A stretch of 64,000 bases of DNA from Candidatus Bruticola sp. (GTDB lineage: Bacteria; Vulcanimicrobiota; Xenobia; Xenobiales; Xenobiaceae): positions 52,216 to 116,215 of the forward strand of contig JBJEGD010000022.1 in assembly GCA_051874735.1 (NCBI GenBank). Reading direction: 5' to 3'. The notes beneath the pieces are model-generated. The model had not been told where the DNA came from. It was given only the letters and a program-made list of their open reading frames with translations, and ran no database searches. Each line of letters begins with the position of its first letter. Positions within the stretch are counted from its first letter, which is position 1. A program made the translations under genes and the position numbers. This document shows positions 14,953-58,738 of the stretch, one piece after another.

Positions 14953-15207
14953 AATTATGCTCTTTTTTCATATGAATTATAGATTCAGCTTTAAACTTAT
15001 ACAAGAGCCATCTACACAAAGAAACCATTAAGCCATGCAGTATAGCACATAATGCAGCTGCAATACACTAGAGAACAAAAGAACTGGAGCCACAGGATGG
15101 AGGGGGATGTGGGAAGGAAGCGACATTGATACGAAGGTGACAGATACACCGGAGGGCCTTAAGCTAACGCTTTACTTTATTATGTGGATACTAACAGTAC
15201 CAGGTGC

Positions 15208-15696
15208 TCAACGAGCAGATAACTTATCTTTTTTAGCCGGAGGATAGTAGAATACGCTTACTTTCTGGCCACTGCCTACTGAACTAAGCTGCACAATGTG
15301 AACTTTATCGGCTTGCGGAGACTCCATACCCAGCAGCTTAGCTTGCTCAGAGATTCTTTTCAGCGAAGACAACTCTTCGACTTGAAGCGCAACTTTATTT
15401 TTCTGTTTATCAAGGGCGGCTAATTTATGCTGAGCTCTGTCCAATTCATATTGAACTTCAACGAGCCCAGCGTATTGGAGTGTCAGTAAAAAGACCAGCA
15501 TCACTACGATAGAGAAAACGCATAAGCACCAAACTTTGGGAAGTACAGCTAATTTGGGGAGGTCATTCTTAACCTGAGCGGAGATTTCACTTAGTTCGTC
15601 TACAGACCGAACAGTTCTTCTCCTAAGCTGCTTAGCCCATTCTGGCGGGGTGGGCAAATGTTCTACCGACCTACGGACACCAAATTGAGACATCAA
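15208..15696 (-). CDS. ftsL: Putative cell division protein FtsL (single TM + coiled coil)
   Basis: Small bitopic protein between rsmH and ftsI. TM VWCLCVFSIVVMLVFLL followed by coiled-coil segment. Confidence 0.5.
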   Translation of the reverse strand: MMSQFGVRRSVEHLPTPPEWAKQLRRRTVRSVDELSEISAQVKNDLPKLAVLPKVWCLCVFSIVVMLVFLLTLQYAGLVEVQYELDRAQHKLAALDKQKNKVALQVEELSSLKRISEQAKLLGMESPQADKVHIVQLSSVGSGQKVSVFYYPPAKKDKLSAR

Positions 15697-15760
15697 CTTT
15701 TCCTTTCTCTATTGCACTAAAAAAAGACTTGCGAAAATCTGCTCTGACTGAAGCTGTTAT

Positions 15761-19260: not shown

Positions 19261-21342
19261 ATGTCTAATATCTTAAAGAACGGATGGCCTATTCCGAGGT
19301 TTGATTTAGCGCTGGGCATTACCGATATTCAGTGGCTCATCGGTGAAATCAGTAATGCTAGAGATAGTGAAATTGAAAAGTTTGAAAACAAGTTTGCCGA
19401 GTTTCTAGGCGTAAAAAAAGCCATTTACATGAACTCTGCCCGCGGAGCTCTCTATTTGATATTGCAATGTCTCAATTTAGCTCCGCATTCTAAAGTAATT
19501 ATCCCTGCTTGGACACATCATTCTATACCTTCGGTTATTATTGCTGCCGGTCTCCAGCCTCATTTGGTCGATATTCGTGAAGGCAGCTGGGTTATGGGGC
19601 CAGAAACTATAAGCGATGAGGACTGGGAAGGCGTTTCTGCCGTTATTATAACTCACATGTACGGATGTCCGGCCCCCGTAGAAGAGCTCACAGCCATTGC
19701 CAGAAGTAAAAACATCGTAGTCATTGAAGATTGCGCCCAAGGTTTTGGGGCCTCCGTAAACGGGAAAAAAGTCGGCACTTTTGGTGATGCAGCTATATTT
19801 TCTTTCGCTCTTACTAAAAACTTCACCACTTTGGGTGGAGGAATGGCAGTTTTTCAAAATCCGCACTTGGCAGAAGTTGCCTCCTTGCGCATGGAAGATT
19901 CGTATATTACCCCCAGTTCTTCCATATATCCTAAAATCTTCAAAGCAGCTGCTATGTGGGCAGGCACCACAACGTTAGGCTTTACTTTAAGCGCTTATGT
20001 TTTCCTTAGTGTCGGTTGGTCGTTTTTAGGTAAAGATACGCTGCATAGCATGTTCGAAGACAGCATTAACACAAATGCTCCTGATATCAGTGCTAAGCCT
20101 TCGCCAGTTCAAGCGGCTCTAGGCAGACGTCTGCTAGAATGGGCTGACGAGCAAAACAAGCAACGCACCCAAAACGGTAAAAAATTAATAGAACTTTTCC
20201 AGCAGGCCAAACTGCCAGGATTAGTAATTCCCAAATATCCTTCCTACGGAGAGTCAGTCTTCACTTCGTTTGTTGTCGGCCACATAGAAAACGAAAAACT
20301 GGCTCGTCAACTTTCAAGTCACAGCGTTGATACTTCTCCGGGATATTTAAAACCAGTTCAGCAAATACCCATGTTTTCTGAGTCGGTGAGTTATACCAGT
20401 AAACTAACAACCAGCAACTTGTTAGCCCGCACTCAACTCCATTTGCCCATATATCCTCGCCTAAAAGACGAAGATCTGGAGCGCATCGTCAAAGGATGTC
20501 GCTATTCACTCGACACCATTCTTCACTATGGAGGGAATAAAGAGTTTAATCTACCTGTAGTGAAAGAAGAGAAACCGCATGACGTACTTTACCATGGCAG
20601 CGATCCGCTTGCTGCCGATTACTCCCCTAAACGCATAAAACCTGAAAAAACTTCGCATTATTTGGGAGCTGACGAATCGTTGTCGACCAGACGCTCTTCG
20701 GCAGAATCTCAAGCGGTGGAACCGGATGCGAGTTCCAATTTACAATCTGACCGTCCATCCACATCTACTTTTTCTGCACATTCTTCTCCAGTTCAGCAAT
20801 CATTTGCGCCCCCATCTAACAATTTAGCCGCTTCTACAGTAACTTCTTTAACAGACAAACAGTCGGCGGCCGTCCCGCCTAAGCATCCAGCGGCTCCGCC
20901 ACTGCCTCCTTCAGCGCTGGGGAAGTCAGCTGCTATCCCGCCCAGTCGCCCAGCAGCTACGCCACTGCCCCCATCAGCGGCCGGAAAGTCCGCTACTGTC
21001 CCGCCCAGCCGTCCGACAGCTCCGCCGCTACCTCCATCAGCAACTGGACGGTCAACTCCACCCCAGCTCAATCGCCCAACAGCTCCTCCTTTGCCTCCTT
21101 CAGCATCCGGACGCCTTGCCACGTTACCTAATTCTGGTGCAGGACGCCCAGTTACACCAACATCATCTGGCACGGATCGTCTTTCAGCTGCTCCTACTCA
21201 CTCTCGCCCGGTGGCCTCTTCAGTAGCTAAAAACATTTTGGCTCTGCGCAAGAGTCCAACCTTCAGCGGTTCGGCCGGTGCTGAGACAGCCAATAAAGCC
21301 CATACCTCGGCTTCAGATGGCAGTGACAATAGAGCAAAGTAA
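19261..21342 (+). CDS. DegT/DnrJ/EryC1/StrS-family PLP-dependent sugar aminotransferase fused to C-terminal Pro-rich tandem-repeat tail
   Basis: Residues 1-~420 align to the DegT family (ITHMYGCPAPVEEL...IEDCAQGFGAS...FSFALTKN). Residues ~470-620 are repeats of the form RPxAPPLPPSAxGKSA. Confidence 0.8.
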   Translation: MSNILKNGWPIPRFDLALGITDIQWLIGEISNARDSEIEKFENKFAEFLGVKKAIYMNSARGALYLILQCLNLAPHSKVIIPAWTHHSIPSVIIAAGLQPHLVDIREGSWVMGPETISDEDWEGVSAVIITHMYGCPAPVEELTAIARSKNIVVIEDCAQGFGASVNGKKVGTFGDAAIFSFALTKNFTTLGGGMAVFQNPHLAEVASLRMEDSYITPSSSIYPKIFKAAAMWAGTTTLGFTLSAYVFLSVGWSFLGKDTLHSMFEDSINTNAPDISAKPSPVQAALGRRLLEWADEQNKQRTQNGKKLIELFQQAKLPGLVIPKYPSYGESVFTSFVVGHIENEKLARQLSSHSVDTSPGYLKPVQQIPMFSESVSYTSKLTTSNLLARTQLHLPIYPRLKDEDLERIVKGCRYSLDTILHYGGNKEFNLPVVKEEKPHDVLYHGSDPLAADYSPKRIKPEKTSHYLGADESLSTRRSSAESQAVEPDASSNLQSDRPSTSTFSAHSSPVQQSFAPPSNNLAASTVTSLTDKQSAAVPPKHPAAPPLPPSALGKSAAIPPSRPAATPLPPSAAGKSATVPPSRPTAPPLPPSATGRSTPPQLNRPTAPPLPPSASGRLATLPNSGAGRPVTPTSSGTDRLSAAPTHSRPVASSVAKNILALRKSPTFSGSAGAETANKAHTSASDGSDNRAK
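20872..21135 (+). repeat. ~63-bp imperfect tandem repeat (about 4 copies) encoding PPSRPxAPPLPPSAxGKSAxx
   Basis: Repeated ccgcc(c)agtcgcccagcagctac/gccgctgcc(t)cc(a)tcagc units, directly visible in the DNA. Confidence 0.7.
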
Positions 21343-21449
21343 GGCAAAAGCTAGCAGAAGCTGTTCGTCGTAACGGCGTTTTTAGGTCTGCTTCAGCTTT
21401 AGCCTAAATTTACTTATAAAGGTTAATTTACAATTAGGCAAAAAACGAT

Positions 21450-22484
21450 ATGAAATTTATAACTATGGCCAAAGCAGGAGCGGCCGTTCTGAAAGGACGA
21501 CTCAGCGGTTCGCCTCGCCCTATTTTCGCTACTATAGCAACCAACAACACTTGCCAGTCTCGCTGTCATTACTGCAAAATTCCGGCCAGGAAACAACCGG
21601 AGTTGACTACAGAACAAATAAAAACCTTAATTAAACAAATGGCGGAATTCGGTATCCAGCGTTTAGGTATCTGGGGAGGCGAACCTCTGCTGCGCAGCGA
21701 TATTGAAGAGCTGGTAGCTCACGCCAAGCATTTCGGTTTATATACAACTTTAGACACAAACGGATATCTTGTTCCTCAGAAAAAGTCTCTGCTAAAAGAA
21801 CTGGATCATATAATAATCTCGTTAGACGGTCCAGAAGAGGCTCACGATGCTAACCGAGAACCTGGATCGTTTCTTAAAGCTATGGCCGCAGTAGAAACTG
21901 CCGCGGCTAGTCAAGTCGCTCTTTGGACAATTACCGTACTTACATCTAATAATATTCACCAAGTAGACTGGATACTAGATCAGGCTGATAAATACAAATT
22001 TACTCCTACATTCCAAGTTCTGCATCACAGCGAATATTTTGGTTTGAACAATCCCCTGCGCCCTTCCGACCAAGAATATAAGCAATGCCTTCTCTATTTG
22101 AAAGAAGCTAAATTAAAAGGACGCAGGATTGGCAACTCTATTCAATGCTTAGATCATTTACTGAATTGGTCCTCTTTCAGCCAAAATACTTCTATAGAAG
22201 GAGGGCTAGGCTGGAGTCATTGCTGGGCCGGGCGTTTTTATTTAAACATAGACGCCGACGGACGGCTCTATCCTTGTTCCCTTCTTATAGGCGACAAATT
22301 GGGGCCGAGTGCTCTAGAACTAGGCTTTGCAGAAGCAGCGGCCCAGGTTAGCCGTTATCCCCTACCTTGCCAAAGTTGTTCAGCAACTTGCTTTACAGAA
22401 TACAATCTGCTCTTCTCTCTTAATCATCATACTATCATGCAGTGGGTCATGGCTATGGGCAGCAAACTGCATAAAAGCAAATAG
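21450..22484 (+). CDS. Radical SAM protein with C-terminal SPASM/twitch-like Cys cluster
   Basis: CQSRCHYC (Cx3Cx2C) near N-terminus, GGEPLL glycine motif, C-terminal CQSCSATC. Confidence 0.75.
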   Translation: MKFITMAKAGAAVLKGRLSGSPRPIFATIATNNTCQSRCHYCKIPARKQPELTTEQIKTLIKQMAEFGIQRLGIWGGEPLLRSDIEELVAHAKHFGLYTTLDTNGYLVPQKKSLLKELDHIIISLDGPEEAHDANREPGSFLKAMAAVETAAASQVALWTITVLTSNNIHQVDWILDQADKYKFTPTFQVLHHSEYFGLNNPLRPSDQEYKQCLLYLKEAKLKGRRIGNSIQCLDHLLNWSSFSQNTSIEGGLGWSHCWAGRFYLNIDADGRLYPCSLLIGDKLGPSALELGFAEAAAQVSRYPLPCQSCSATCFTEYNLLFSLNHHTIMQWVMAMGSKLHKSK

Positions 22485-22546
22485 TTACCTATATATATCT
22501 TGATCAATTATGCTCATTACGGCGATCTTTAATTGTAGGAAATTTT

Positions 22547-24007
22547 ATGAAGGTACTTTTAATTAACCCACCGCGCGATAACAGCATTTCTTCAGAAGTC
22601 CCCACCACAGTCAACGCCGAAACTAATACTATTCCCCCATTAGGATTGATGTATTTAGAGGCTCATTTACACAAGTACTCTAATAATTCAGAAGTGCGCA
22701 TCGTAGATTGTCTGGCTGATCACCTACACATAGATCAGCTGCGCAGAATTGTAGCTGATTATCAGCCCCAAATTGTAGGTGTCACCGGACACACACACGA
22801 TTTAATTGATATGATGCAAACTTCCCAAATGGCTAAAGAAGAACTAGGAAGTAAAGTCAAAATATTTTGGGGAGGGCCACACGTTTCCGACTTTCCTACT
22901 CAATCTATGAAATACAGCTGTGTAGACGGGTGTATTCCTTTTGAAGGTGAAGAGGCTTTTACAGAGGTTGTAACTGCTCATGCTGCGGCTTGGAATGACC
23001 AATCGGGCTACGACAATAAAACTTTGGCTGATTATCTGCAAAAAATAGAAGGCATATATTTTAAAAATGAACAGCAGCAGGTCGTACAGACGCCGACTCG
23101 TCGTCCCATCAGCGATTTAGATCTTCTCCCCTTTCCCCGACGTGAAATTTTAGACTATCGCAAATACAGTTATGTACTTGGCAGTGAAGCAGTGGCAACT
23201 TCTCTACTAACTAGCCGGGGATGTCCCTACAAATGTTCCTTTTGCAACACTCCAGGACGTACAACTTGGAGATGGCGCAGTGCTGGATCGGTAGTTGATG
23301 AGTTAGAAAAATGCGCGGAATTGGGAGTAAGTGAGGTGTACATCGTCGATGACACTTTCAATGTGCGCCAAGATCGAGTATTGGCCATATGCAATGAAAT
23401 TCAGAAACGCTCTATAAAAGTAAACTGGAATATCAGAGCCAGAGCCAACTGCATTACACCTGAAACAGTTAAAGCTATGCGCCGTGCAGGGTGTACCAGA
23501 GTCCATATCGGAGTAGAATCAGGTACCGATGAAGGGATGAAAGCACTTAATAAAAATTTGACAACTGCTAAAGTCCGCCAAGCTTTTAAAATGCTCACAG
23601 ACGAAGGTTTGGCTACTGTCTGCTACTTTATGATAGGCTGCCCTCACGACAGTTCTCTAGATGAAATAAACAAAACTATCAATTTTGCTATCGATCTAGA
23701 TCCAGACTATGCCCTATTTGGCATTTTAACTCCTTATCCCAACACATTAGTTTACAATCAAGGCATAGAAAAAGGCATACTCGATCCTAATCATTGGGAG
23801 CAATTCCTGGCTAATCCTTATCCAGATTTTAAGCCACAGGTTTGGACAGAATTTTTTAGCGCAGCCGAGCTAAGTACTTTATGTGATCAAGCCTTTAAAC
23901 GCTTCTATCTGCGTCCTAAACAGATGTTCCGCAAGCTTCTAGAGCTGAAGAATTTCCACGACATGGCCCGCAAATTAAAAGCAGGCTGGGAGATTTTGAA
24001 ATTATGA
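22547..24007 (+). CDS. B12-binding-domain radical SAM protein
   Basis: N-terminal Rossmann-like B12-binding-type domain, then CPYKCSFC (Cx3Cx2C). Confidence 0.75.
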   Translation: MKVLLINPPRDNSISSEVPTTVNAETNTIPPLGLMYLEAHLHKYSNNSEVRIVDCLADHLHIDQLRRIVADYQPQIVGVTGHTHDLIDMMQTSQMAKEELGSKVKIFWGGPHVSDFPTQSMKYSCVDGCIPFEGEEAFTEVVTAHAAAWNDQSGYDNKTLADYLQKIEGIYFKNEQQQVVQTPTRRPISDLDLLPFPRREILDYRKYSYVLGSEAVATSLLTSRGCPYKCSFCNTPGRTTWRWRSAGSVVDELEKCAELGVSEVYIVDDTFNVRQDRVLAICNEIQKRSIKVNWNIRARANCITPETVKAMRRAGCTRVHIGVESGTDEGMKALNKNLTTAKVRQAFKMLTDEGLATVCYFMIGCPHDSSLDEINKTINFAIDLDPDYALFGILTPYPNTLVYNQGIEKGILDPNHWEQFLANPYPDFKPQVWTEFFSAAELSTLCDQAFKRFYLRPKQMFRKLLELKNFHDMARKLKAGWEILKL

Positions 24008-25182
24008 GAAACCCTTGGCCAGTCCTTAAAGCTATTTTAGGTGGGGATACCCCTATTTACGTACACTTTGGCTTAACTCACCGATGCAACTTAACTTGCG
24101 CCATGTGCGGTTTATGGCAAAAGGGCGATAAAAATGAAGAGCTAAGTTTAGAGCAGATAAAGGCTGCTGCTAACAATTTTCGCAAACTAGGCACTGTAGC
24201 CATATCTTTAGGAGGCGGAGAGCCTTTTTTGCGACCGGATCTACCCAAAATTGTGGCAGCTTTCATACGCAACGGTATTGAAACGCGAGTTCTTACCAAT
24301 GCCTTGGCCGGTTCAACTGATATGCACGAAGCTGTAGCTGCTGCCGGTCTGCGCCATATTTCCATCTCCCTAGATACTCCTAACCCTGCAATACAGAGTG
24401 AGATTTGCCACAAGCCAGAAATTTGGGAAAAAATTATTGACAGAATTCGCTTTTGGTCTTCATACATCCAGAAACGTTCTGGAACAGGCTTAATCAACTG
24501 TGTAGTTTCAGCGCGAAACATAAACGATATTCCTAAAATGGCAGCTATTGCCCAAGCTTATAACTTTTATCTGTCTCTGGTGCCTTTAGAAAGACACAGC
24601 TATCAAGGTGAAATACTCAGCTGTTCTCCTGATTCAGAAGAAATGCGCTTTGCCAGCCAAGATGAAGAAAAACTAAACAGCCTCTGGGAATATTTATATA
24701 AACTAAAGAAGCAGCCTAATTCTCCTATTTTCAACTCCATGCCTTATATAAAGGCCATGATTCAATTTTTAAAATACGGCTGCCGAAACGACTCTTCAGA
24801 GACCTCTAATTTGCTTAGCCATAATTTTTGGGGAACTGGACTTGACTGTCAGACGGGTAGCTTAAGCTTTTCAGTCAGTCCCAGCGGCCGCTATTCTATG
24901 TGCCACTTTCAAGATGAGGCTCCGGAAGAGCATCCCAAAGTTTATGAAGATAGTTTTATAAACTGGTACAAGCATAAGCGCGATCTGTCCAAAATAAAAA
25001 AGTTGCGCCGCAGCTGCCTGGCTTGTTTTCGTCCCTGCTGGTGGGAGATAGCCTTAACTATGCATAAATATCCAGCCTTTATGAATGCTCTTCAATTGAC
25101 CTTTCGCCGCATTCCTAGTCAGAAACGTCCATCGCCTTCAGAATTAGTAGAAACTATAAAAAAGGTTCCCCCACTATGTTAG
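24004..25182 (+). CDS. Radical SAM / SPASM-domain protein
   Basis: CNLTCAMC Cx3Cx2C, GGGEPFL. C-terminal CLACFRPCWW auxiliary cluster motif. 4-nt overlap with the upstream gene. Confidence 0.75.
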   Translation: MRNPWPVLKAILGGDTPIYVHFGLTHRCNLTCAMCGLWQKGDKNEELSLEQIKAAANNFRKLGTVAISLGGGEPFLRPDLPKIVAAFIRNGIETRVLTNALAGSTDMHEAVAAAGLRHISISLDTPNPAIQSEICHKPEIWEKIIDRIRFWSSYIQKRSGTGLINCVVSARNINDIPKMAAIAQAYNFYLSLVPLERHSYQGEILSCSPDSEEMRFASQDEEKLNSLWEYLYKLKKQPNSPIFNSMPYIKAMIQFLKYGCRNDSSETSNLLSHNFWGTGLDCQTGSLSFSVSPSGRYSMCHFQDEAPEEHPKVYEDSFINWYKHKRDLSKIKKLRRSCLACFRPCWWEIALTMHKYPAFMNALQLTFRRIPSQKRPSPSELVETIKKVPPLC

Positions 25183-26882
25183 ATACATCCGTTCAAAATA
25201 TGCAAAATAACTGCAGAGAACAAATAGATTCCGCTCCTGGAGCTTCACCTGGTTCAGCTGAAGCGGTCTTTAATCCAGCCGTCGGTTCCCCGGAGCAGAA
25301 TCTTCATGCCCCTTGGGCGCCCAAATCCGGCTGGTATGGTGAGGCTAAAGATTTCAGTGTCGTCTTAATAGCTATGTACAGCGTAGAGAATGCCGGTCTA
25401 CGCTACTTATCGGCAGCTCTTCGTCGCGCAGGCTTCAAAGTAAATCTAATTTTTTTGCGGGATTGGGTCAACAACAAATTAGAAATGCCTTCCGCTGAAG
25501 AACTTGAACTCGTATTTGATATTATTGCTGAAAAAAAAGCTAATTTTGTAGGTATAGGTTTTATTTCTAGCCTACTTTCTATGGCAGAAAAACTTACCGT
25601 ACGCTTAAGAGAACGTTTTCCCCATCTGCCTATCTGCTGGGGGGGAATTCATGTTACGGCAGTGCCTGAAGGGGCTCTCGATTACGCCGACTATCTCTGT
25701 CTTGGAGAGGGAGAAGCTCCCTTAATTGATCTGTGTGAAGCGCTGTATAATAACCAGTTTACTGGAAATATTTTCAATATTTGGGCAAAGCTTAACGGAA
25801 AAATTTTCAAAAATGAAATGCGTCCGCTCATAGCTAATTTAGACGAGCTTCCTTATCCAGACGTAGACGACTTTAACAAATTTTATATCGAAGATAAAAC
25901 TATACACAACGAAGAACCTTGGAAAAGAACGGCCGAGTATCGAATATATTGTTCTAGAGGCTGCCCTTACAATTGCTCTTACTGTTATGTATCTATCCTA
26001 CGCGAAAAATTTGCTGCGGACAAACAGAAGTTTTACCGTCTTCGTTCAGTTGAGCATATACTTGGTGAACTGGAATATATAAAAGCTCATTTTCCACGCT
26101 TGGCTAGAGTAAAAATAGATGATGATACTGCTTTTGCGGCCCCAGCTGCATGGGTAGATGAGTTCTGTACAAAATATCCACAACGCATTAATTTGCCCTT
26201 TGAATGCATGCTTATACCGCCCATGCTGAAACGTCCTTTCTTAGAAAAACTTCAAAAAGCCGGATTAGTTCGCTTGCAAACTGGCATTGAAAGCGGCTCG
26301 CCTCAAGAAAGTTTATCTGTGCACAATAGAGTGCCAGGCAATAATAATATTTTAGCTTTTTCTAAATTTAATAGAGAATTACGTATAAATGCAGTTTACG
26401 ACCTGATTATCGACAATCCATGGGCTTCAGAATCGATGAAATTAGAAACTGCTCAATTTTTATTAGAACTGGAGCGCCCTTACGACATTTACTTTTATTC
26501 GCTAAATTATTTCCCAGGTACAGCCATTACCAAACGTCTTTTAGCAGAAGGACGCATTGATGCAACTCAAGTAGAAGGTCTTAACAACAAAGCTTGGAAA
26601 CAGTTCCGGGTTTCTATGGACTGGCCGCGCAGTCCCGAAGATCGCTTTTACTTGTCGATCTATTGTTTAGCCTCTAAAACGTTTATACCCAAAGCCTTTA
26701 TCCGCTTTCTGCTCAAACATCGCCAATATTTTAAACACCACTGGCAGGTTCCCTTTATTTTAGCTTGGGCTGCAAATTTCTTAAAAATGGGAGCAGTTGC
26801 CTGGCGTTATCTGATCAACGGCGAATTGACCTGGTTCAAAATCAGACAATACGGCGATTTACGCAAACTAATCAGCCAATAA
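25176..26882 (+). CDS. B12-binding-domain radical SAM protein
   Basis: CPYNCSYC Cx3Cx2C after an N-terminal B12-binding-like domain. Overlaps the upstream gene by 7 nt. Confidence 0.75.
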   Translation: MLDTSVQNMQNNCREQIDSAPGASPGSAEAVFNPAVGSPEQNLHAPWAPKSGWYGEAKDFSVVLIAMYSVENAGLRYLSAALRRAGFKVNLIFLRDWVNNKLEMPSAEELELVFDIIAEKKANFVGIGFISSLLSMAEKLTVRLRERFPHLPICWGGIHVTAVPEGALDYADYLCLGEGEAPLIDLCEALYNNQFTGNIFNIWAKLNGKIFKNEMRPLIANLDELPYPDVDDFNKFYIEDKTIHNEEPWKRTAEYRIYCSRGCPYNCSYCYVSILREKFAADKQKFYRLRSVEHILGELEYIKAHFPRLARVKIDDDTAFAAPAAWVDEFCTKYPQRINLPFECMLIPPMLKRPFLEKLQKAGLVRLQTGIESGSPQESLSVHNRVPGNNNILAFSKFNRELRINAVYDLIIDNPWASESMKLETAQFLLELERPYDIYFYSLNYFPGTAITKRLLAEGRIDATQVEGLNNKAWKQFRVSMDWPRSPEDRFYLSIYCLASKTFIPKAFIRFLLKHRQYFKHHWQVPFILAWAANFLKMGAVAWRYLINGELTWFKIRQYGDLRKLISQ

Positions 26883-29244: not shown

Positions 29245-29748
29245 ATGCGTATAGTCACAGCTTTCAAAGCTTTTTTTAAAGCCCTGTTCGATGGTACTTT
29301 TGCTGAAAAGTTGTCCATTTTATTAGGAGAAAAAGCAGAGCAGCCCCAGTCATCAGTTAGCACCCCTTCAATGTATCCTGGTGCAGTCGGACTGCTAGCT
29401 CTGCTGCAGCGTGAAGGGCGGCTCATAGATTTTTTGCAAGAAAACCTAGATAACGTTCCTGAGGCGCAGATAGGCGCAGTCGTCAAATCTACTGTATATA
29501 AAGGATGCCGCAAAGCCCTTAAAGATTATCTGGAGCTAGAGCCAGTGCGCTCAGAAGAAGAAGGCTCCGAGATCACAGTAGATGAAGGTTTTGATCCCAA
29601 CAGCATCCGTTTAGTTGGCAAAGTTGAAGGGAACCCTCCATTTAAAGGCATCTTACGCCACCAAGGCTGGCGTCTTGTTAAAGCAAATCTTCCTCAAAGT
29701 ACCGATGATAATTCCGATATTATTTGTCCAGCCGAAGTAGAACTTTAA
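29245..29748 (+). CDS. DUF2760-like small protein (Hsp70-associated)
   Basis: Immediately upstream of a non-canonical Hsp70, 2-nt gap. Family call is from memory and not from a diagnostic motif. Confidence 0.35.
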   Translation: MRIVTAFKAFFKALFDGTFAEKLSILLGEKAEQPQSSVSTPSMYPGAVGLLALLQREGRLIDFLQENLDNVPEAQIGAVVKSTVYKGCRKALKDYLELEPVRSEEEGSEITVDEGFDPNSIRLVGKVEGNPPFKGILRHQGWRLVKANLPQSTDDNSDIICPAEVEL

Positions 29749-29749
29749 T

Positions 29750-31612
29750 TTGCAGAGGCTATATATTGAAAAAGTATTCCAGGAGAGAGAACATTTTATG
29801 ATTATAGGTATAGACTTAGGAACGACTAACTGCGCCGTAGCCTGGTCCGATCCGGATGCTATTTCATCAGAACAGAAAACCCGCAAAGAGACTCCACCTA
29901 TACACCATTTTGCTATTTCCCAACTGACTTATCCGGCCACCGTTGAACATCGCAGCACTTTGCCATCTTTTTTGTATTTTCCAGGCACTCACGAACTCCC
30001 CCCAGGTAGTCTAGAACTTCCTTGGGATAAAAACATTAACAGTGTTGTAGGCTACTTAGCTCGTGAGCAAGGAGCTAAAGTTCCTCATAGAGTTGTTTCT
30101 TCGGCAAAATCTTGGCTTTCCGGTGATCAGGCTGATCGCAATGCCCCAATTCTTCCCTGGAATGCCCCAGATGAAGTTGAGCACATTTCCCCTATAGACG
30201 CTTCATCTCGATACTTAGAACATTTGCGCTCTGCTTGGGATTTTGAACATCCAGAATGTCCTCTAGCTGAGCAACAAATTGTACTTACCGTCCCTGCTTC
30301 TTTTGATACTATTGCCAGAGAACTTACTGTTCAGGCAGCTCATAAAGCCGGCCTTACCAAACTTACCTTACTCGAAGAACCGCAAGCTGCTTTTTATGCC
30401 TGGTTGGACAACAGTGAAAAAGATTGGCGTTCGCAAGTTGCTGTGGGGGATAAAATATTAGTCTGTGACATCGGAGGAGGCACCACTGACTTTAGCCTTA
30501 TAAGCGTAACCAATCAAGATGGTAATTTATCCTTAGAACGCTCAGCAGTTGGAGACCATATTTTGTTAGGCGGAGACAATATGGATCTCACCCTAGCCGT
30601 CTGCTTGCAGCAAAAGCTTAAAGCTGAACGCAAAATTAAGCTCGACAGCTGGCAAATGCAAATACTAACCCATGCTTGCAGAACTGCCAAAGAGCAACTC
30701 CTACAAGAAGATGGCGAAGAAGAATGGAATGTGACTATTCCCGGACGAGGCAGCAGTCTTATTGCTTCCTCTATAACTGTTCCTCTGTCCAGACAACTTA
30801 CTGAACAGCTTATAGTAGATGGCTTTTTTCCGAAATGTTCCATAGAAGATCAAGCTGTCCGCTCTCGTCAAAGCGGTCTGCGCGAGTTAGGATTGCCCTT
30901 TGAGTCAGACCCAGCCGTCACTAAGCATTTAGCTCGTTTCTTAACAGTTAATAAACCTGAAGACAGTACAGTTCCATTCTTTGCACCTACAGCTATTTTA
31001 TTTAACGGAGGAGTATTGAAAGCTCCAATGTTGAGACGCCGCCTAACGGAAACTTTAAATAGTTGGCTCGCCTCTATTGGAGCACCGCCTGTAAAAGAAC
31101 TAGAAGGAGCTGATTACGATCTAGCCGTAGCCCGCGGCGCTGTACGCAGCGGTCTAGCTAGTCATGGAGCGGGCATAAGGATAAAAGCGGGTACTAACCG
31201 CTCGTACTACCTTGGCATTGAAACTTCTATGCCCGCTGTGCCAGGTCTTACTCCACCCATAAAAGCCCTCTGTACGGCTCCATTCGGCATGGAAGAAGAT
31301 TCTCGTGAGAAACTGCCGGGCAGAAGCTTTGGCCTAGTAGTTGGCGAGCCAGTCGAATTTCGTTTTCTTGCTTCAACCTGCCGTCAGCAAGATCAACTCG
31401 GCGATCTTATCGACGATTGGGAAGATGATATGGAAGAATTACCTCCCCTGCAGGTGACCTTGCCCGCCGAAATGGGTGAAGTTGGTAAAATTATCCCCGT
31501 TACTTTAGAAACTCATGTCACTGAAGTAGGCACTTTAGAAGTATGGTGTTGTCAAGAAAATGTTCCCAAATGGCGCTTAGAATTTGAAGTGCGTTCTTCC
31601 GGACGCTCCTAA
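29750..31612 (+). CDS. Hsp70-family protein (non-canonical, actin-like ATPase NBD)
   Basis: IIGIDLGTTNCAVAW phosphate-1 motif, DIGGGTTDFSLI phosphate-2 motif. C-terminal region not a canonical DnaK substrate-binding domain. Confidence 0.8.
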   Translation: MQRLYIEKVFQEREHFMIIGIDLGTTNCAVAWSDPDAISSEQKTRKETPPIHHFAISQLTYPATVEHRSTLPSFLYFPGTHELPPGSLELPWDKNINSVVGYLAREQGAKVPHRVVSSAKSWLSGDQADRNAPILPWNAPDEVEHISPIDASSRYLEHLRSAWDFEHPECPLAEQQIVLTVPASFDTIARELTVQAAHKAGLTKLTLLEEPQAAFYAWLDNSEKDWRSQVAVGDKILVCDIGGGTTDFSLISVTNQDGNLSLERSAVGDHILLGGDNMDLTLAVCLQQKLKAERKIKLDSWQMQILTHACRTAKEQLLQEDGEEEWNVTIPGRGSSLIASSITVPLSRQLTEQLIVDGFFPKCSIEDQAVRSRQSGLRELGLPFESDPAVTKHLARFLTVNKPEDSTVPFFAPTAILFNGGVLKAPMLRRRLTETLNSWLASIGAPPVKELEGADYDLAVARGAVRSGLASHGAGIRIKAGTNRSYYLGIETSMPAVPGLTPPIKALCTAPFGMEEDSREKLPGRSFGLVVGEPVEFRFLASTCRQQDQLGDLIDDWEDDMEELPPLQVTLPAEMGEVGKIIPVTLETHVTEVGTLEVWCCQENVPKWRLEFEVRSSGRS

Positions 31613-35340: not shown

Positions 35341-35386
35341 ATTGTATCCAGTCAAAAATTATAATAAAAGTAAATAAAGACAGATA

Positions 35387-35420
35387 GGCCCCCGCTCAAG
35401 CATAATAGAAAGCGGGGGCC
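35387..35420. terminator. Bidirectional terminator hairpin between convergent genes
   Basis: ggcccccgct / agcgggggcc, 10-bp perfect stem, 14-nt loop. T-rich on the minus-strand side. Confidence 0.5.
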
Positions 35421-35471
35421 TCTTATGTTGTCTCAAAGCCGACCCATATAAAATGGGACGGCCGCCTCAAT

Positions 35472-36461
35472 CTACTTCTGAGCAGCGCAATTAATATAGC
35501 CCATTACATTGGCGCTGTTTAAACTATAACTTCTTCTGGCCACTGAATCGGAAGAGTTGCCTTCAATAGTATAAACCTTACCGTTGGCAACTTTTTCTAC
35601 GATGCCAATATGATCGGAAGTACCATCACCCTGCCAATCGAAGAGAATAGCATCGCCGGGTTGAGGAGTGTAAGAACCACGTCCAGCCCAAATATTTTCC
35701 TTCTTGGCCCAATTGACAATAGTAGGGCAATAGTTTACGTTAGAGCAGGAAGAAGTATCGAGCACGCCATGATCTTTGAGCATATTCATGGCCCAAGCAG
35801 CACACCACGGAGTGGTCTGACAATTAATACCACTCTTCTTAGTAATAGCATTGATTGAAGAAGCATTGGACTTTTCAGTCATACCGACCATAGCTCCAGC
35901 ATCGGATAACAATCCGCTGACACCTGTGTTAGCACCATAGTTACCGTTATTGCCTACACTGCTGGTACCCAGGCCGGAGGATCCTACAACACTGGCGGCC
36001 ACAGAGCTAAGATCCATACCCTGAAGCATATCCCCATACTGAGATATCATAGACTTGCACAGTACATCAATAGTAGAATCGCTCATGCCGGGGAAGTAAG
36101 TTTTGAGATACTGAGTAAGCATCTTGGTGGCTTCTTTAGTTGTCTCATTATCTACCTTAGGGTTAGTGTCCATACTTCCAACAATTGCCTGCAGGAAATC
36201 TTCAAAACTTCCACCAGAGTAAAATGATTTCAGGCAGGCAGCCATCGTTTTGCCTTCACTGCCAGCAGCTTCAAGCCCCTTAATCTGAGAATCGATCAAA
36301 TCTTGGGACAATCCCATCATGCCTTGATTGCCACCAAACACAGAAGTGGCGGATACACCGGTATTAGCCATACTAGAATACATTGCTTGAGAATTGGCAA
36401 GATCTTGACCAATCATGTTGTTCATGCCAGACATGGTAGATGTGTTCAATAGCGCGTTCAT
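35472..36461 (-). CDS. CHAP-domain amidase/peptidase with low-complexity N-terminal region, no signal peptide
   Basis: C-terminal CHAP signature: CAAWAMNML (catalytic Cys), PQPGDAILFDW, DHIGIV (His), IEGN. Start moved to internal M31 (MNALLNTS), which has an AGAGAGG RBS upstream. N-terminal ~200 aa G/S/M/N-rich. Confidence 0.7.
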   Translation of the reverse strand: MNALLNTSTMSGMNNMIGQDLANSQAMYSSMANTGVSATSVFGGNQGMMGLSQDLIDSQIKGLEAAGSEGKTMAACLKSFYSGGSFEDFLQAIVGSMDTNPKVDNETTKEATKMLTQYLKTYFPGMSDSTIDVLCKSMISQYGDMLQGMDLSSVAASVVGSSGLGTSSVGNNGNYGANTGVSGLLSDAGAMVGMTEKSNASSINAITKKSGINCQTTPWCAAWAMNMLKDHGVLDTSSCSNVNYCPTIVNWAKKENIWAGRGSYTPQPGDAILFDWQGDGTSDHIGIVEKVANGKVYTIEGNSSDSVARRSYSLNSANVMGYINCAAQK

Positions 36462-36631
36462 AAGAAAGACCTCTCTTTTAAAACTAGACTTGTCTATATT
36501 TTCAATACATTCTACATTAAAGTAAAGGCCTATTGGCAGACAACTAGACAAAAAATAAAAAATGCCTCTTACCCTGACCGTTACTAAAGTGTAATGCTCA
36601 AAGAAAAGGCACTGTAAAAGAAGCTAATGCA

Positions 36632-37828
36632 CTAACTCATACTGCTCACTTGACGAGTTTGCTCTACTCCTTCAACCATATTCTCTAATGCGGCATCCAA
36701 CTCTTCATCGGTAACTTCTCCGCCATTTTGCATATGTTCGCATACATAATAGGCATTTTCAAGTTTAGTCAAACCTTCTTCAATCGCTTCACGTGATAGA
36801 ATTAAAGCTTCCCCCATAGGAGCAGAAGTATTAAAGGCACTCTCTGGTAGAGAAGTATATTTGGACTTCAAATCTTCAACAAAAGCAGCATATTCGCTCA
36901 ACCCCTCAGAAAAAGCCCCCCAGCAATCGTTGCCATCTCTTAGGCCGCTTATGCAGTCCAATATAGTTTGCACACAGCTAGGCAAGTTGGTGCAACCACA
37001 GCATTCACTGTCATTTTCTTCCATAACAAGACGGTCTGGTAAGCGCAAACCGCAATTAGGACAACGCTTATCCCATTCTCCCAATTTAACTCCGCACTTA
37101 GGACAACTCCAGTTCAAAGAGCATTCCTTAGCCTGCTTTTTAGCTTTAATTTCTTTATATTTGGTAATCATTACCTCGCTGGCCGTTTTAAACGAATCTA
37201 AAGCTGCCGAAAGTTCCTCTTGCTTTCGCTGTTCACAAACTTTGAATAACCAATCCAAAGCTTCACAATAATCCTCTATGTGATCCGGAAGCGAATTACA
37301 AGCTACTAAACGCTCAAAAGCCGAACGAAGCGAGTCTAGGCAAGTTTCTAACATATCCCAATCGCGTCGGCCCTCAAGTACCGCTATCCCAGCTTTCAAC
37401 ACACTATCAATGCCCATAAACTCAGACATTTTAGTTTTAGCTTTCTTCAACTCTTCTAATTTGGCCAAGCTCTTTTCAGTTTCATGCAACTGACTTACTA
37501 ACGCATTGACGTCACGTACAGCCCCTTCGGCATCTTCACCTTTTAAATCGCAAATGAGAGATGACAAAACGCCGGCCACACCTTCAAAGTCGGTATACAC
37601 CTGAGCGATATGAGGCAATTCCTCTTCATTATAATCGTAACCGCGCACACTGTACTTAAAGGCCAATATAAAAGCAGACATCACCACATCACATTGATGC
37701 AGTTCATCACGTAACTGCATCAATGGTTCTTTATTAGCGATACAATGTTCTAAACCGCTTACAAAAGCGCGCAAATGGGGGATTAATTTAGGAAAAGAAT
37801 CATCCAGCTTAGGCAATGTATCCAGCAT
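36632..37828 (-). CDS. Hypothetical protein, paralogue A, with internal zinc-ribbon
   Basis: CPKCGVKLGEWDKRCPNCG ribbon. Clear paralogy with 37880-39094: LPKLDDSFPKLIP vs FPLLDDNFPRIIP, DSVLKAGIAVLE vs DSLLRAGNFVLE. Confidence 0.5.
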   Translation of the reverse strand: MLDTLPKLDDSFPKLIPHLRAFVSGLEHCIANKEPLMQLRDELHQCDVVMSAFILAFKYSVRGYDYNEEELPHIAQVYTDFEGVAGVLSSLICDLKGEDAEGAVRDVNALVSQLHETEKSLAKLEELKKAKTKMSEFMGIDSVLKAGIAVLEGRRDWDMLETCLDSLRSAFERLVACNSLPDHIEDYCEALDWLFKVCEQRKQEELSAALDSFKTASEVMITKYKEIKAKKQAKECSLNWSCPKCGVKLGEWDKRCPNCGLRLPDRLVMEENDSECCGCTNLPSCVQTILDCISGLRDGNDCWGAFSEGLSEYAAFVEDLKSKYTSLPESAFNTSAPMGEALILSREAIEEGLTKLENAYYVCEHMQNGGEVTDEELDAALENMVEGVEQTRQVSSMS

Positions 37829-37879
37829 GGGACCTCCGAAAAATTGTCTTGTCGTACAGATAAAAAACAGAAAAGATAA

Positions 37880-39094
37880 TTATTTTTTAGAATTGCGATA
37901 TTTTTGAGCTAAACCACCTATACTGCGCATCTCATTTACAGCTTCAGCCATAACTTCTAGAGCACACTGCATATGAAACCGATCTACAGGAGGTTCAAAT
38001 TCTTCTAAAAGCTCTACTGCCTTAGAGAAGTTATCTATGCAAGTATTAGCAAGGTCTATAATACCATCAATATTTTCACGTTCTTCTGGAGTTGTTTTCA
38101 ACTTAGAAGAAGACATTTTATTAAGGCGTGAAGAAGCGTCAGCGACACGGCGTCGCAGCTCACCTACAGCCCTCTTGAAGGGACGTATCATTTTAGGATT
38201 GTTGGGAAGTTCTTTGGCTACATCGAAAATACGCTGTACATACTCAGGCATTCCGCTAATTGCCTCGCTCTTATCAGCATCTTTGCCTAGTGAGCTACCT
38301 CGCTCAAACTCTTCGGGCATTCTGGCTCCACAAGCGAAACATTTCTTGCTTCCTCCCAGCATAGGCTTACCGCAATAAGGGCACAGCCCTACAGATGAAG
38401 TTTCGACATCAATCTGACTGTCCTGGAAATTGACAAGTTCTTCTCCACTCGACTTAACTTCTTCCAGGACCTCAGGTAATGCTTCCAAATTTCTTTCGTT
38501 GAGTACTTCAACTAAGCGCTCTAAAGCGTGATCGTGACGGATCAACTCTTCAGGCAGTCCACTGCCAGAAACTATCTCATTCCATTGGGGAATAAGCGCC
38601 TCTAAACGGGCACTCAGAGCATCCCACTCAGCCCCGTTAGTTTCTAACACAAAATTGCCAGCGCGCAGCAAACTATCTACGACTGGCACCTCAGAATAAA
38701 TATGGCTATCACCTACAGCGGCTTTCAAGTCCATATTTAATTCTTCCAAATCTTTTAAATGTTCGTATATGCTGGCCACACAATTAACCGCCGCTGCTGT
38801 AGCATCCATACTCAAAGCGGTTTCTAATTTTGCCATTTCCGAACTCATACGCGTAAAAAGAAGCACTATTTCGTTGATCGCTTCATTCCTCTCGGGAGGA
38901 AGTTCTTTCAAACGTAACACTTCCATAAAGTTGCCCAAAGCTGTCCCGAGAGCTATATCGCACTGGCGAAATTCAAAGGCTGTACAGCCCAAACTTACTC
39001 CACCAGCTACACATTCAGACATAATTTTTACCAACTGTCTGAAAGAAGGAATTATACGAGGAAAATTGTCATCTAGAAGAGGGAATTTAGCCAT
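37880..39094 (-). CDS. Hypothetical protein, paralogue B, with internal zinc-ribbon
   Basis: CPYCGKPMLGGSKKCFACG. Tandem paralogue of 36632-37828. Confidence 0.5.
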   Translation of the reverse strand: MAKFPLLDDNFPRIIPSFRQLVKIMSECVAGGVSLGCTAFEFRQCDIALGTALGNFMEVLRLKELPPERNEAINEIVLLFTRMSSEMAKLETALSMDATAAAVNCVASIYEHLKDLEELNMDLKAAVGDSHIYSEVPVVDSLLRAGNFVLETNGAEWDALSARLEALIPQWNEIVSGSGLPEELIRHDHALERLVEVLNERNLEALPEVLEEVKSSGEELVNFQDSQIDVETSSVGLCPYCGKPMLGGSKKCFACGARMPEEFERGSSLGKDADKSEAISGMPEYVQRIFDVAKELPNNPKMIRPFKRAVGELRRRVADASSRLNKMSSSKLKTTPEERENIDGIIDLANTCIDNFSKAVELLEEFEPPVDRFHMQCALEVMAEAVNEMRSIGGLAQKYRNSKK

Positions 39095-39247
39095 TGTAGG
39101 TGTGAAGTTCTAGCGCTCTGCAGCCCTTCCTGTATTTTTTACCGGCAATAAAACATAAAATTTAACTTGATACCCCAGGCAAAGCGCAGATAAAAGCGGC
39201 ACCCCAAGCGTTTATCTGCGCTTCTATAGTGTAAAAAATGTTATAAA

Positions 39248-40234
39248 CTATTTTGCAGTAACAACAGAGGGCAAGTCATTTTTATCTGAAGAGAATTTGG
39301 AACTAACAGTGCGGACAGGAATTTGTCCTAAAACAGCAGCAGTCCCCAAACTAGAAAGTGAACTACAGCCTCTGCGGGGAACAATCATACTGAGACCGCG
39401 TTTTTGCCCTTCCTGAGCTACACAATTCATACTTTTTTCCGCAATAGCCTCCATTTCTTTAATTTGGCGATACAAATATTCCAACTTTTGCCAAGACTTC
39501 GCTATTTTTTGCAACTGCTGAGAAGCAGAAGTAGCTAATTTTAAGCCAGAATTAAGCAAACTTTGGGCTCCTAAGCTTAGTTTTTTACCCTCTTGTTGCA
39601 TAGCCATCCCTTGCTGCTTTAAAGCTTTGCCTTTACTTATCATAGCTAAGCCTGCAGCTTTAGAAAAAGGGCAAGCAGCCAAAGCTCGTCCCGCCGCCTC
39701 TAAAGCTGCTCCAGAAGCATAAAGAGCAACTCCGGAAGTTATTTGAGCTAAAGCACACTGTCTCATCTGGGTAGCACTCTGTTTTAGTTTAAGGCTCAGA
39801 GCATTTAATTGTGAGGCAGCACTTTGGCTTTGAGTTAAAGCGGTCGACTGCAGAAGATACTTTTGTTCCTCAGTCTGAGCTTGACGAGAGATTTGCAAAT
39901 TGCGCCTATACTCGGACTGCAGCTGCTCATTAGAGAGAGATTCCGCTTCATTAGCTTCTAAGCCACTGAGCCTCAGCCAGGAAACTGCACCATTATAGGA
40001 GTTAGTTTCCAACTGTCCCGAATTTATCGAAGACGCGTCCACACCACTATTAGTAGATTCTGCCGTTAAAATTTTCACTCTACTATCAGAAGCGGAATAA
40101 AGGTCGCCGCTATGGCCCAGTAAAGACTGCGTTTTTAGATAGTCGGCATTAGAATAAGGTGCTGAAAAGGCGGCTAAATTACTACGGCAACAAGTGAAAC
40201 TACCATCGCATGAACCTAATATAGTATTGTTCAC
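39248..40234 (-). CDS. Hypothetical A/Q/L/S-rich coiled-coil protein
   Basis: Long low-complexity helical/coiled-coil region. First gene of the minus-strand operon, after a long AT-rich promoter region at 40235-40472. Confidence 0.45.
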   Translation of the reverse strand: MNNTILGSCDGSFTCCRSNLAAFSAPYSNADYLKTQSLLGHSGDLYSASDSRVKILTAESTNSGVDASSINSGQLETNSYNGAVSWLRLSGLEANEAESLSNEQLQSEYRRNLQISRQAQTEEQKYLLQSTALTQSQSAASQLNALSLKLKQSATQMRQCALAQITSGVALYASGAALEAAGRALAACPFSKAAGLAMISKGKALKQQGMAMQQEGKKLSLGAQSLLNSGLKLATSASQQLQKIAKSWQKLEYLYRQIKEMEAIAEKSMNCVAQEGQKRGLSMIVPRRGCSSLSSLGTAAVLGQIPVRTVSSKFSSDKNDLPSVVTAK

Positions 40235-40472
40235 AAAAAATTTCCCCCCTTAATATTTTTATAGGCTGTAGTAAACAGCTCCCTGCACATTTTAACATAA
40301 ACCAACAAAATAAGCCAAAATAATATCTTAAACTTAGAAGTTTACCTTTACTTAAAAATAATATCGAATTATATAATAGAATTTTAACGTTCTAAAATTA
40401 ATAAAAAAAGTCCCAGGCACAACTTAAATATAAGCGGTCGGGACTCCAAAGCTCAATTACTCCATATTAAAA

Positions 40473-57171: not shown

Positions 57172-57558
57172 ATGAGTAATGATGATCGTTTCGCCTCTAG
57201 GGGCAAAACTCAGGAGCAACTAGCTGGAAAGAGCAGCGATCTTAAAATTAAAGGCGTAGAAGAGCACGAGAGAAAACTGCTAGAGCAGATGCGCAATAAA
57301 AGAAAGCAACAGGAAGCGCATAAAGCCAGTCTGGAGCAAGGCGGCCCCAGTCCTGAGACAGCGGCCAACGTTCACTATATGAAGTGCCCTGAATGTGGTT
57401 TTGATCTTAAACCGAGCAATATCGAAGAATTAGGCATGTCCCTGCCCAAATGTGCTAATTGTGGCGGTGTATTCGTAAGCAAAGAAAAAATCGCTTCTAT
57501 GAAAGAAAGATCTGGCGTTTTAGGACGTCTGAGTAAAATATTTGGCAGCAGCAAATAA
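57172..57558 (+). CDS. Small zinc-ribbon protein with N-terminal coiled coil
   Basis: CPECGFDLKP...CANCGGVFV C4 ribbon. Charged helical N-terminus. Confidence 0.4.
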   Translation: MSNDDRFASRGKTQEQLAGKSSDLKIKGVEEHERKLLEQMRNKRKQQEAHKASLEQGGPSPETAANVHYMKCPECGFDLKPSNIEELGMSLPKCANCGGVFVSKEKIASMKERSGVLGRLSKIFGSSK

Positions 57559-58724: not shown

Positions 58725-58738
58725 ATTTTAAATCGTAG

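Follow-up and report, generated by a model that had tools for sequence, protein, structure and literature searches.

Zinc-ribbon paralogues beside a signal-less CHAP hydrolase in Candidatus Bruticola: candidate cytoplasmic partners of Met-rich, effector-like wall hydrolases

Analysis of a 64,000-nucleotide stretch of DNA from Candidatus Bruticola sp. (assembly GCA_051874735.1, contig JBJEGD010000022.1, positions 52,216 to 116,215; here called the window and numbered from its first letter) focused on a locus of four genes on the minus strand. Candidatus Bruticola lives in the gut and belongs to class Xenobia of the phylum Vulcanimicrobiota/Eremiobacterota. The four same-strand open reading frames (ORFs) named in a preliminary description of this DNA are present at 39248-40234, 37880-39094, 36632-37828, and 35472-36551. 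In the direction of transcription, they encode a coiled-coil protein (CC), two zinc-ribbon (ZnR) paralogues, ZnR_B and ZnR_A, and an enzyme with a CHAP domain. The ZnR and CC proteins belong to real, uncharacterized families, and the model of the locus given in the preliminary description needs revision.

The ZnR_B gene (37880..39094) encodes a protein of 404 amino acids with the motif LDDNFPRIIP at 39047-39076 and a Zn ribbon extending from C238 to P260 (38315-38383). The ZnR_A gene (36632..37828) encodes a protein of 398 amino acids, including 19 cysteines, with the motif LDDSFPKLIP at 37778-37807 and the ribbon at 37049-37105; it is identical to a protein annotated from a MAG (metagenome-assembled genome) of Candidatus Bruticola sp. 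The two proteins aligned over their full length with 24% identity (E=2e-29). In an alignment of 21 family members, the N-terminal motif L-D-D-x-F-P-x-x-I-P and the ribbon C-P-x-C-G-x8-9-C-x-x-C-G...P were invariant or nearly so, which bears out the paralogy and both motifs proposed earlier. The four ribbon cysteines were invariant in 79 sequences, and the scores against PF13240 and PF13248 were 19.7 to 20.1 bits, below the cut-off of 25. Apart from such weak Zn-ribbon matches, Pfam, NCBIfam, PADLOC, and PHROGs contained no family for the paralogues or for the CC protein. A profile search of the Protein Data Bank (PDB) with ZnR gave nothing meaningful, the top match being a designed coiled coil. 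The earlier statement that the two paralogues have no similarity that can be placed was thus confirmed against the described families of all five resources, and the same holds for the CC protein.

The predicted structure of ZnR_B revealed three helical bundles arranged around one Zn ribbon as a string of four-helix bundles. The nearest known structures were FAT, talin, and alpha-catenin modules, which were not significant (Foldseek E > 0.04). The FAT domain with its paxillin LD motifs, the talin rod, and the alpha-catenin M domain are eukaryotic and, unlike ZnR, have no Zn ribbon, so they provide an analogy of fold type only. ZnR proteins contain 10 to 19 cysteines and a Zn ribbon and have neither a signal peptide nor a transmembrane (TM) segment, features that fit a cytoplasmic location. 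The two paralogues evolve at different rates. ZnR_B is 95/88/86/67% identical to its relatives, compared with 93/85/83/69% for the neighbouring PRK-like kinase, and the faster-evolving ZnR_A is 85/71/69/44% identical.

An exhaustive profile search detected 103 ZnR proteins at E<1e-10. The best 150 matches contained 73 clusters (50% identity) of proteins of 370 to 470 amino acids with one central ribbon, all mutually detectable by BLASTP; the remainder of these 150 were multi-ribbon proteins that matched through the ribbon alone. One family member is annotated from Ca. Eremiobacterota. A search of metagenomes with an alignment of ZnR_B only returned six near-identical loci and no others. No ZnR protein was found in phage records, plasmid records, or IMG/VR, and literature searches revealed no description of the ZnR family or of hydrolases with a Met/Gln-rich N terminus. 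Judged by sequence, ZnR is a previously undescribed family that extends across Eremiobacterota, and its members are probably cytoplasmic, with three predicted helical bundles and one Zn ribbon. Elsewhere in the window, a 128-amino-acid protein (57172-57558, plus strand) carries a C-terminal CPECG...CANCG Zn ribbon and appears by eye to be unrelated to the ZnR family.

The fourth gene (35472-36461) encodes a protein of 329 amino acids when read from the ATG at 36461. This start is most likely to be used rather than the TTG at 36551, because relatives share both an AGAGAGG Shine-Dalgarno sequence and the ATG, and the longer ORF contains a conserved promoter-like block. The N-terminal region (residues 1 to 175; 35937..36461) is rich in Met, Ser, Gly, and Asn (Ser 14%, Gly 13%, Met 8%) and has no signal peptide. 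AlphaFold2 predicted helices at residues 52 to 145 (pLDDT of about 70 to 75), followed by a Gly/Ser linker. A disordered N terminus of about 200 residues rich in Gly, Ser, Met, and Asn had been described; the composition is as reported, and the region is about 175 residues long and only partly disordered. It evolves fast, with identities to relatives of 66/47/44%. The CHAP cysteine amidase/peptidase domain comprises residues 176 to 329 (35472..35936, stop codon included). It matched PF05257 with 50.1 bits (Pfam cut-off, 26), as did all 16 aligned homologues. The predicted catalytic residues are Cys220 (35802-35804), His284 (35610-35612), and Asn302 (35556-35558). These three and E300 were invariant in the 16 homologues (alignment A4; numbering of the 329-residue protein), and the catalytic signature reported earlier was thereby corroborated. 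The protein is predicted to be an amidase/endopeptidase with an intact active site.

The predicted structure of the CHAP domain has a papain-like alpha+beta fold that resembles solved wall hydrolases, the nearest being autolysins (LytE, CwlO, and Acd24020) and endolysins. Sequence searches of the PDB detected no chain for the protein; the top match for the N-terminal region of the CHAP alignment was an artefact of the Gly/Ser linker. The enzyme is thus kin to CHAP and NlpC/P60 amidases and endopeptidases such as the autolysins Acd24020 of C. difficile and LytE and CwlO of B. subtilis and the endolysin CHAP domains of LysIME-EF1 and LysGH15. Unlike those enzymes, it has no signal peptide, cell-wall-binding domain, or phage/holin context, and it carries a Met/Ser/Gly-rich N-terminal region that is common to other hydrolase classes. 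Either a peptidoglycan amidase or a glutathionylspermidine (Gsp) amidase had been proposed. The kinship to wall hydrolases supports the former, whereas the similarity to Gsp amidase was weaker; Tae effectors were not among the closest kin either. A Gsp synthetase/amidase was rejected, as no ATP-grasp synthetase domain is fused to the enzyme or encoded alongside it.

No signal peptide or TM segment was found in the four proteins, the highest 19-residue Kyte-Doolittle mean being 1.34. This agrees with the earlier description of an enzyme without a signal peptide, and it supports a non-Sec route, one of the options named there. The usual hydropathy threshold for a TM segment is about 1.6. A signal-anchor-release (SAR) or other noncanonical signal peptide in the form of the Met-rich helix was considered and rejected: the helix is amphipathic with Gln at every third to fourth residue, and hydropathy values computed by hand for two helices were about 1.2 and 1.5. 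Other proteins encoded at L004, one of the homologous loci (numbered L001 and so on), have canonical signal peptides.

Known export routes gave no match. Neither the Pfam scan of window ORFs nor the flanks examined showed genes of type III, type VI, or type VII secretion systems (T3SS, T6SS, T7SS) or holin genes. A T6SS amidase of the Tae type with a Tai immunity protein was rejected because of missing linkage to Hcp, VgrG, or PAAR and to an adjacent periplasmic immunity gene. A phage endolysin-holin cassette was rejected on the basis of the missing TM segment in the four proteins, the housekeeping flanks, and the absence of ZnR from phage records and IMG/VR. IMG/VR contained the CHAP domain at no more than 38% identity over the full length. 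The literature searched describes a single cultivated member of the phylum, a diderm with thin peptidoglycan, type IV pili, and no flagella (PMC9758169). FlgJ-like export by the flagellar T3SS was rejected in view of this lack of flagella and of the missing match to the Rod-binding domain. A cluster resembling pseudopilus, type II secretion (T2SS), or type IV pilus genes lies about 17 kb from the locus (57654-62286, minus strand). It includes a GspF/PilC-like gene (PF00482, 58739-59797) and two genes with prepilin-type N termini, FAYTLIELL (59770-61035) and GVTIIELL (61032-61709). Such a cluster is not known to export signal-less proteins, and no evidence linked it to the four-gene locus.

The CC gene (39248..40234) has a GTG start and encodes a helical protein of 328 amino acids rich in Ser, Ala, Leu, and Gln. 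Its conserved core comprises residues 92 to 282 approximately (alignment A5). Invariant Gly and Pro residues follow each other at an exact spacing of seven (G168, G175, G182, P189, then G195, G202, G209, G216, and G230) and flank a CPF(S/T)KAAG turn on both sides. This pattern around the turn suggests a tight helical hairpin. With identities to relatives of 55/41/47/26%, the CC protein is the fastest evolving of the four, and jackhmmer detected homologues exclusively in gut-Xenobia loci. Searches of the family libraries and a profile search of the PDB gave no match.

Analysis of the noncoding segments revealed hairpins and promoter-like blocks between the genes. The AT-rich intergenic region 5' of the CC gene (40235..40472, 27.7% GC) reads GGAGTCCC...GGGACTTTTTTT and contains a hairpin and T-run that follow the upstream PRK-like kinase gene. 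A promoter scan located TTTAGA-17-TATAAT at 40396-40368, and the Shine-Dalgarno sequence AAGGGGGG precedes the GTG at 40234. Transcription starting from this region, as proposed earlier, is consistent with the promoter-like element; its continuation through all four genes was not supported. A hairpin lies 3' of the CC gene (39182..39223; dG of -23.6 kcal/mol, z = -4.4 compared with shuffled sequence). Its 16-nucleotide arms (39182-39197 and 39208-39223) are 94% complementary; the inverted repeat previously placed at 39183-39225 is therefore real, with these arms instead of perfect ones of 13 bp. This hairpin most likely serves in intrinsic termination or in attenuation. The loci L007 to L012 and L042 have a hairpin of different sequence at the same position, mostly followed by a T-run. 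The T-run in the window consists of only three T, so the hairpin may cause attenuation instead of full termination.

A putative promoter or leader block of about 75 nucleotides precedes the ZnR_B gene (39095..39170). In eight loci (alignment A6), it showed 73% mean column identity, with invariant AAATTTTAT, AGGAAG, and TAGAA. No Shine-Dalgarno sequence is present near the ATG of ZnR_B, and the block could be an unusual promoter, the site of a short-leader mRNA, or a regulatory leader. The ZnR_A gene is followed by a hairpin and a T-run (36548..36613; hairpin 36561-36613, T-run 36548-36560; dG of -23.3, z of -4.1) in the form of an intrinsic terminator. In the spacer between ZnR_A and the fourth gene, the window, L007, L008, L011, and L002 have hairpins of differing sequence with T-runs of six to eight T. 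Downstream lies the promoter-like block of the fourth gene (36498..36526), which consists of TTTACT (36521-36526), 17 nucleotides, and GAAAAT (36498-36503). In six loci (alignment A7), TTTACTTT and the AGAGAGG Shine-Dalgarno sequence were invariant. Where the CHAP gene converges with the heparinase-like gene, two GC-rich hairpins (35386..35463; repeat I8 with perfect 11-nucleotide arms; dG of -46.9, z of -5.5) are likely terminators. The simplest reading of the conserved hairpins with a promoter-like block downstream of each is that the locus consists of three adjacent transcription units, CC, ZnR_B-ZnR_A, and the fourth gene, with read-through possible. The single four-gene operon of the preliminary description does not agree with the hairpins and T-runs after CC and ZnR_A and the promoter-like blocks before ZnR_B and the fourth gene.

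The window is ordinary chromosome with a flat GC content of about 43% (42.7% overall); a tRNA scan and an Rfam search at gathering thresholds gave no match. One flank of the locus contains radical-SAM genes, Sua5, a DUF2760/HSP70-like pair, DegT, and a heparinase-II/III-like gene, and the opposite flank contains a PRK/uridine-kinase-like gene, a DEAD/DbpA helicase, rpoD, dnaG, and mutL. The dcw cell-wall cluster (284-16750) is about 20 kb from the four genes. In the flanks of relatives, fetched to 10 kb on either side, the order PRK, CC, ZnR_B, ZnR_A, fourth gene, convergent heparinase-like gene recurred in L001, L002/L003, L007 to L012, and L042. Within this order, the distant relative L001 has an MmeI-type restriction-modification gene (4861-7266) inserted between the PRK-like kinase and CC genes. 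The gene of the DUF2760 protein, followed by that of an HSP70-like/MreB-like ATPase (29245-31612, plus strand), is kept beside the locus in all relatives examined. A further plus-strand cluster (19261-26882), comprising a gene for a 693-amino-acid protein with two DegT matches and four radical-SAM genes, of which two also encode B12-binding domains, looks like one for sugar or cofactor modification.

The CHAP domain of the fourth protein belongs to a subfamily with 1,745 matches of about 60 to 65% identity over 145 amino acids, with several copies per metagenome-assembled genome (MAG). The sources were named Eremiobacteraeota, Vulcanimicrobiota, or Xenobia and, once, Armatimonadetes. Nearly all copies carry a Met/Gln-rich helix followed by a Gly-rich linker, e.g., DPMFQMLEMQNQMLTSMIGLLLNLMQ, and none has a Sec signal. 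Such Met-rich N-terminal regions were found fused to CHAP, NlpC/P60, Peptidase_C39_2, or SLT domains or to no enzymatic domain. At L013, two tandem genes (9815-10750 and 10911-11822) encode proteins with a common N-terminal domain of the Xenobia type, one with a conserved CHAP domain and the other with a weak-CHAP, papain-like domain (GGWCYKYV...HGHICVSLG). The same N-terminal domain with different C-terminal domains follows the logic of polymorphic effectors. A stop-free frame of 1,989 codons from a gut MAG (L019, 69-6035) combines four matches to CHAP with RTX Ca-binding repeats and an effector domain, Peptidase_M91. The L013 pair and this CHAP-RTX-M91 frame fit an effector family. By these sequence features, the CHAP enzyme of the window is a wall hydrolase of a phylum-wide, multicopy, signal-less, effector-like family.

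Two observations concern the taxonomic range of this family. A CHAP protein with the Met/Gln-rich helix DPLSDMVVQLQMQMIMQLFMQQAFQMLAQ is encoded in a MAG labelled Myxococcota (L080, 9539-10807); possibly the N-terminal motif reaches beyond the phylum, or the label of this MAG is wrong. MAGs titled Burkholderiales or Selenomonadaceae (L017, L018, L026, L027, L029, L030, L032, L034, and L047) or Riflebacteria (L009) carry a CHAP gene of the Eremiobacterota type, and these titles are probably taxonomic mislabels of Eremiobacterota bins.

The association of the two families was analyzed from both sides. Starting from ZnR, all 12 genes with readable flanks, at nine independent non-gut loci, adjoin a gene for a signal-less Met/Gln/Gly-rich protein. 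The counted loci were L004 (two genes), L006, L017, L021/L025 (two genes each in the same arrangement), L085 (two genes), L087 (partial), L089, L178, and L179. At L004, a CHAP and a Peptidase_C39_2 gene are each divergently paired with their own ZnR gene, and at L006, an NlpC/P60 gene is likewise divergent from ZnR. At L017, L021, and L025, CHAP lies 54 to 69 bp downstream of ZnR; L021 and L025 have a second, longer ZnR beside a small Gly-zipper/Met-rich protein. At L085, genes for a weak-CHAP and an SLT protein flank two ZnR genes. ZnR stands beside an unassigned amidase-like protein at L089, an SLT protein at L178, and a (GM)n/Gly-zipper protein at L179, and at L087, its neighbour is a partial Met-rich ORF where the contig ends. 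In most of these neighbours, the Met-rich region is fused to a domain that degrades peptidoglycan. Besides the CHAP proteins used as queries, all loci fetched contained only about three more Met-rich ORFs. Starting from CHAP, a full-length ZnR was present within about 2 kb upstream at 10 of 44 Eremiobacterota-type loci and at none of 34 control loci from other phyla. The conserved neighbours of CHAP genes without ZnR were unrelated housekeeping or signalling genes.

The recurrence of this adjacency bears on whether the genes have a joint function at all. They might be neighbours only, with the CHAP protein acting as a cytoplasmic amidase of the glutathionylspermidine-like or muropeptide-recycling kind. 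The three separate transcription units, the occurrence of CHAP and ZnR genes each without the other, and the missing signal peptide are in line with this view. Against it stand the adjacency in varied orientations at nine independent loci, the fusion of the same N-terminal module to SLT, and the similarity to Gsp amidase, which is weaker than that to wall hydrolases and comes with no synthetase domain. This reading is quite improbable.

At these loci, the enzymatic domain of the partner varies and ZnR is homologous, so the constant feature of the partner is the Met-rich region. This favours a factor that binds the region over a domain-specific immunity protein. A toxin-immunity pair, in which ZnR neutralizes the adjacent hydrolase inside the producer, would account for the tight adjacency to enzymes of an antibacterial type. 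Peptidoglycan hydrolases are not known to have a target in the cytoplasm, most hydrolase copies have no adjacent ZnR, and ZnR, a single homologous family, has partners of four unrelated catalytic folds as well as nonenzymatic Gly-zipper proteins. Typical immunity proteins are small and variable, whereas ZnR is large and one paralogue is highly conserved. On these grounds, an immunity function is very improbable. No immunity gene is evident after the CHAP gene of the window, where the convergent heparinase-like gene follows; other loci were not searched systematically.

The divergent gene pairs at L004, L006, and L085 are compatible with adjacency for the sake of regulation, ZnR being a transcription or anti-sigma-type regulator of the adjacent hydrolase or effector genes. 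Contacts of the Zn ribbon with RNA polymerase or with nucleic acid are conceivable, and the fourth gene has its own conserved promoter-like blocks. However, scans of the family libraries detected no DNA-binding or sigma-binding family, proteins of about 400 to 640 amino acids with three bundles are large for such regulators, and a match to Rsd was one among hundreds of generic helical-bundle matches. Same-strand or convergent-overlapping arrangements occur at L017, L021, L085, and L178. A regulatory role is improbable and constitutes a lesser rival.

From the sequence comparisons, the informative unit is the recurring pair of ZnR and a Met-rich protein. The preliminary description had suggested a self-contained, undescribed module. 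The families are undescribed and the unit is conserved in gut Xenobia (L001 to L003, L007 to L012, and L042); self-containment did not hold, as CC is confined to the gut clade, CHAP is missing from L001 and the fourth gene from L091, and CHAP mostly occurs without ZnR.

We propose, tentatively, that the ZnR paralogues are cytoplasmic binding partners (chaperones, adaptors, or holding factors) of the signal-less Met/Gln/Gly-rich N-terminal region. The bound proteins would be a family of peptidoglycan-degrading effectors, with the enzyme at 35472-36461 as one member, and the hydrolase would leave the cytoplasm by a non-Sec route. An SLT domain is not known to have a substrate in the cytoplasm; given wall-degrading fused domains that include SLT, the proteins should exit the cytoplasm, and not via Sec. 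In gut Xenobia, the module would have become fixed at a core chromosomal position and grown to two ZnR paralogues and a fast-evolving helical-hairpin protein, the slow-evolving ZnR_B and fast-evolving ZnR_A plausibly forming a heteromer. By analogy only, the ZnR bundles might bind helices as FAT, talin, and alpha-catenin modules bind amphipathic helices. The family relationships, the adjacency, the domain content, the lack of signal peptides, and the terminator and promoter-like elements are shown by the present analysis; that ZnR physically binds the Met-rich region, that the hydrolase is exported, and that the CC protein has any part in this are inferred from gene adjacency and domain logic. 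This partner model has a probability somewhat below even. A more specific form of Sec-independent delivery, in which the Met/Gln/Gly-rich amphipathic region is the targeting signal, ZnR is its dedicated cytoplasmic receptor or chaperone, and hydrolases and small glycine-zipper proteins are the cargo, is unlikely. Under that form, the CC hairpin protein of gut Xenobia might be one more substrate or a component that acts on membranes.

Known systems resemble the proposed pair in part. Effector-chaperone or effector-adaptor pairs include the T6SS Eag (DUF1795)/prePAAR and DUF4123 systems, the Lap/LXG targeting factors of T7SSb, and class I chaperones of T3SS. As in those pairs, a gene for a cytoplasmic accessory protein adjoins that of an effector with a constant N-terminal region and swapped C-terminal domains. 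In contrast, ZnR has no known sequence or fold kinship to their accessory proteins and is much larger with a Zn ribbon, and most of the putative effectors have no adjacent ZnR. Like polymorphic toxin and effector families, the Met-rich proteins carry one N-terminal module on CHAP, NlpC/P60, C39-like, and SLT domains, as in the tandem pair of L013. Unlike them, they have no known trafficking domain (such as LXG, PAAR, RHS, or MIX) detected by Pfam and no small downstream immunity genes identified. FtsEX-PcsB/RipC and NlpI-MepS, in which autolysins are regulated by helical partners, consist of membrane or periplasmic partners and hydrolases with signal peptides, whereas here the partner appears to be cytoplasmic and the hydrolase is signal-less.

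Several results weigh against the partner model. About three-quarters of the Met-rich CHAP loci have no ZnR within 10 kb; at L013, a CHAP gene occupies the syntenic site, and ZnR genes are absent within 10 kb. The fourth gene of L001 (11271-11867) has no CHAP domain, and L091 has no fourth gene, and both retain ZnR. No secretion apparatus was linked to the locus among the window ORFs or in the flanks examined. ZnR_B shows housekeeping-like conservation, an unusual trait for an effector-specific chaperone. The N terminus of the window protein is weakly Met/Gln-rich, below the Met/Gln threshold used. Terminators between the genes mean that co-expression is not guaranteed, and the predicted likeness of ZnR to helix-binding bundles is generic.

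The slow evolution of ZnR_B, ZnR without CHAP (L001 and L091), and CHAP without ZnR (L013 and most loci) keep a housekeeping role in wall remodelling a serious rival. ZnR would then be a cytoplasmic scaffold or regulator of the growth or division machinery that times autolysin release or activation, in the manner of FtsEX-PcsB/RipC or NlpI-MepS but acting from inside the cytoplasm. ZnR_B diverges no faster than the PRK-like kinase, and the module is inherited vertically in a core context (dnaG, rpoD, DEAD helicase, PRK, module, heparinase-like, DegT, and HSP70-like genes). The CHAP domain is 60 to 65% identical throughout the phylum, with a fold nearest to autolysins. On the other side, nothing tied the module to division genes: the dcw cluster is 20 kb off in the window and does not appear in the 10-kb flanks of relatives. 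Multicopy hydrolases with swapped catalytic domains, fast-evolving N termini, and one RTX and M91 fusion fit effectors better. The housekeeping role is rather unlikely.

Eremiobacterota is a widespread phylum, for which the literature searched yielded a single cultivated representative (PMC9758169). On a modest reading, the present analysis corrects the operon model and places the CHAP enzyme in a phylum-wide, multicopy, effector-like family. If the Met-rich region is a signal and ZnR its receptor, the pair would represent a new route by which diderm bacteria move wall hydrolases out of the cytoplasm. Two families would then receive names and testable functions, ZnR with no fewer than 73 clusters (50% identity) and the CHAP relatives, which number over 1,700, and gut and soil lineages would provide candidate antibacterial enzymes.

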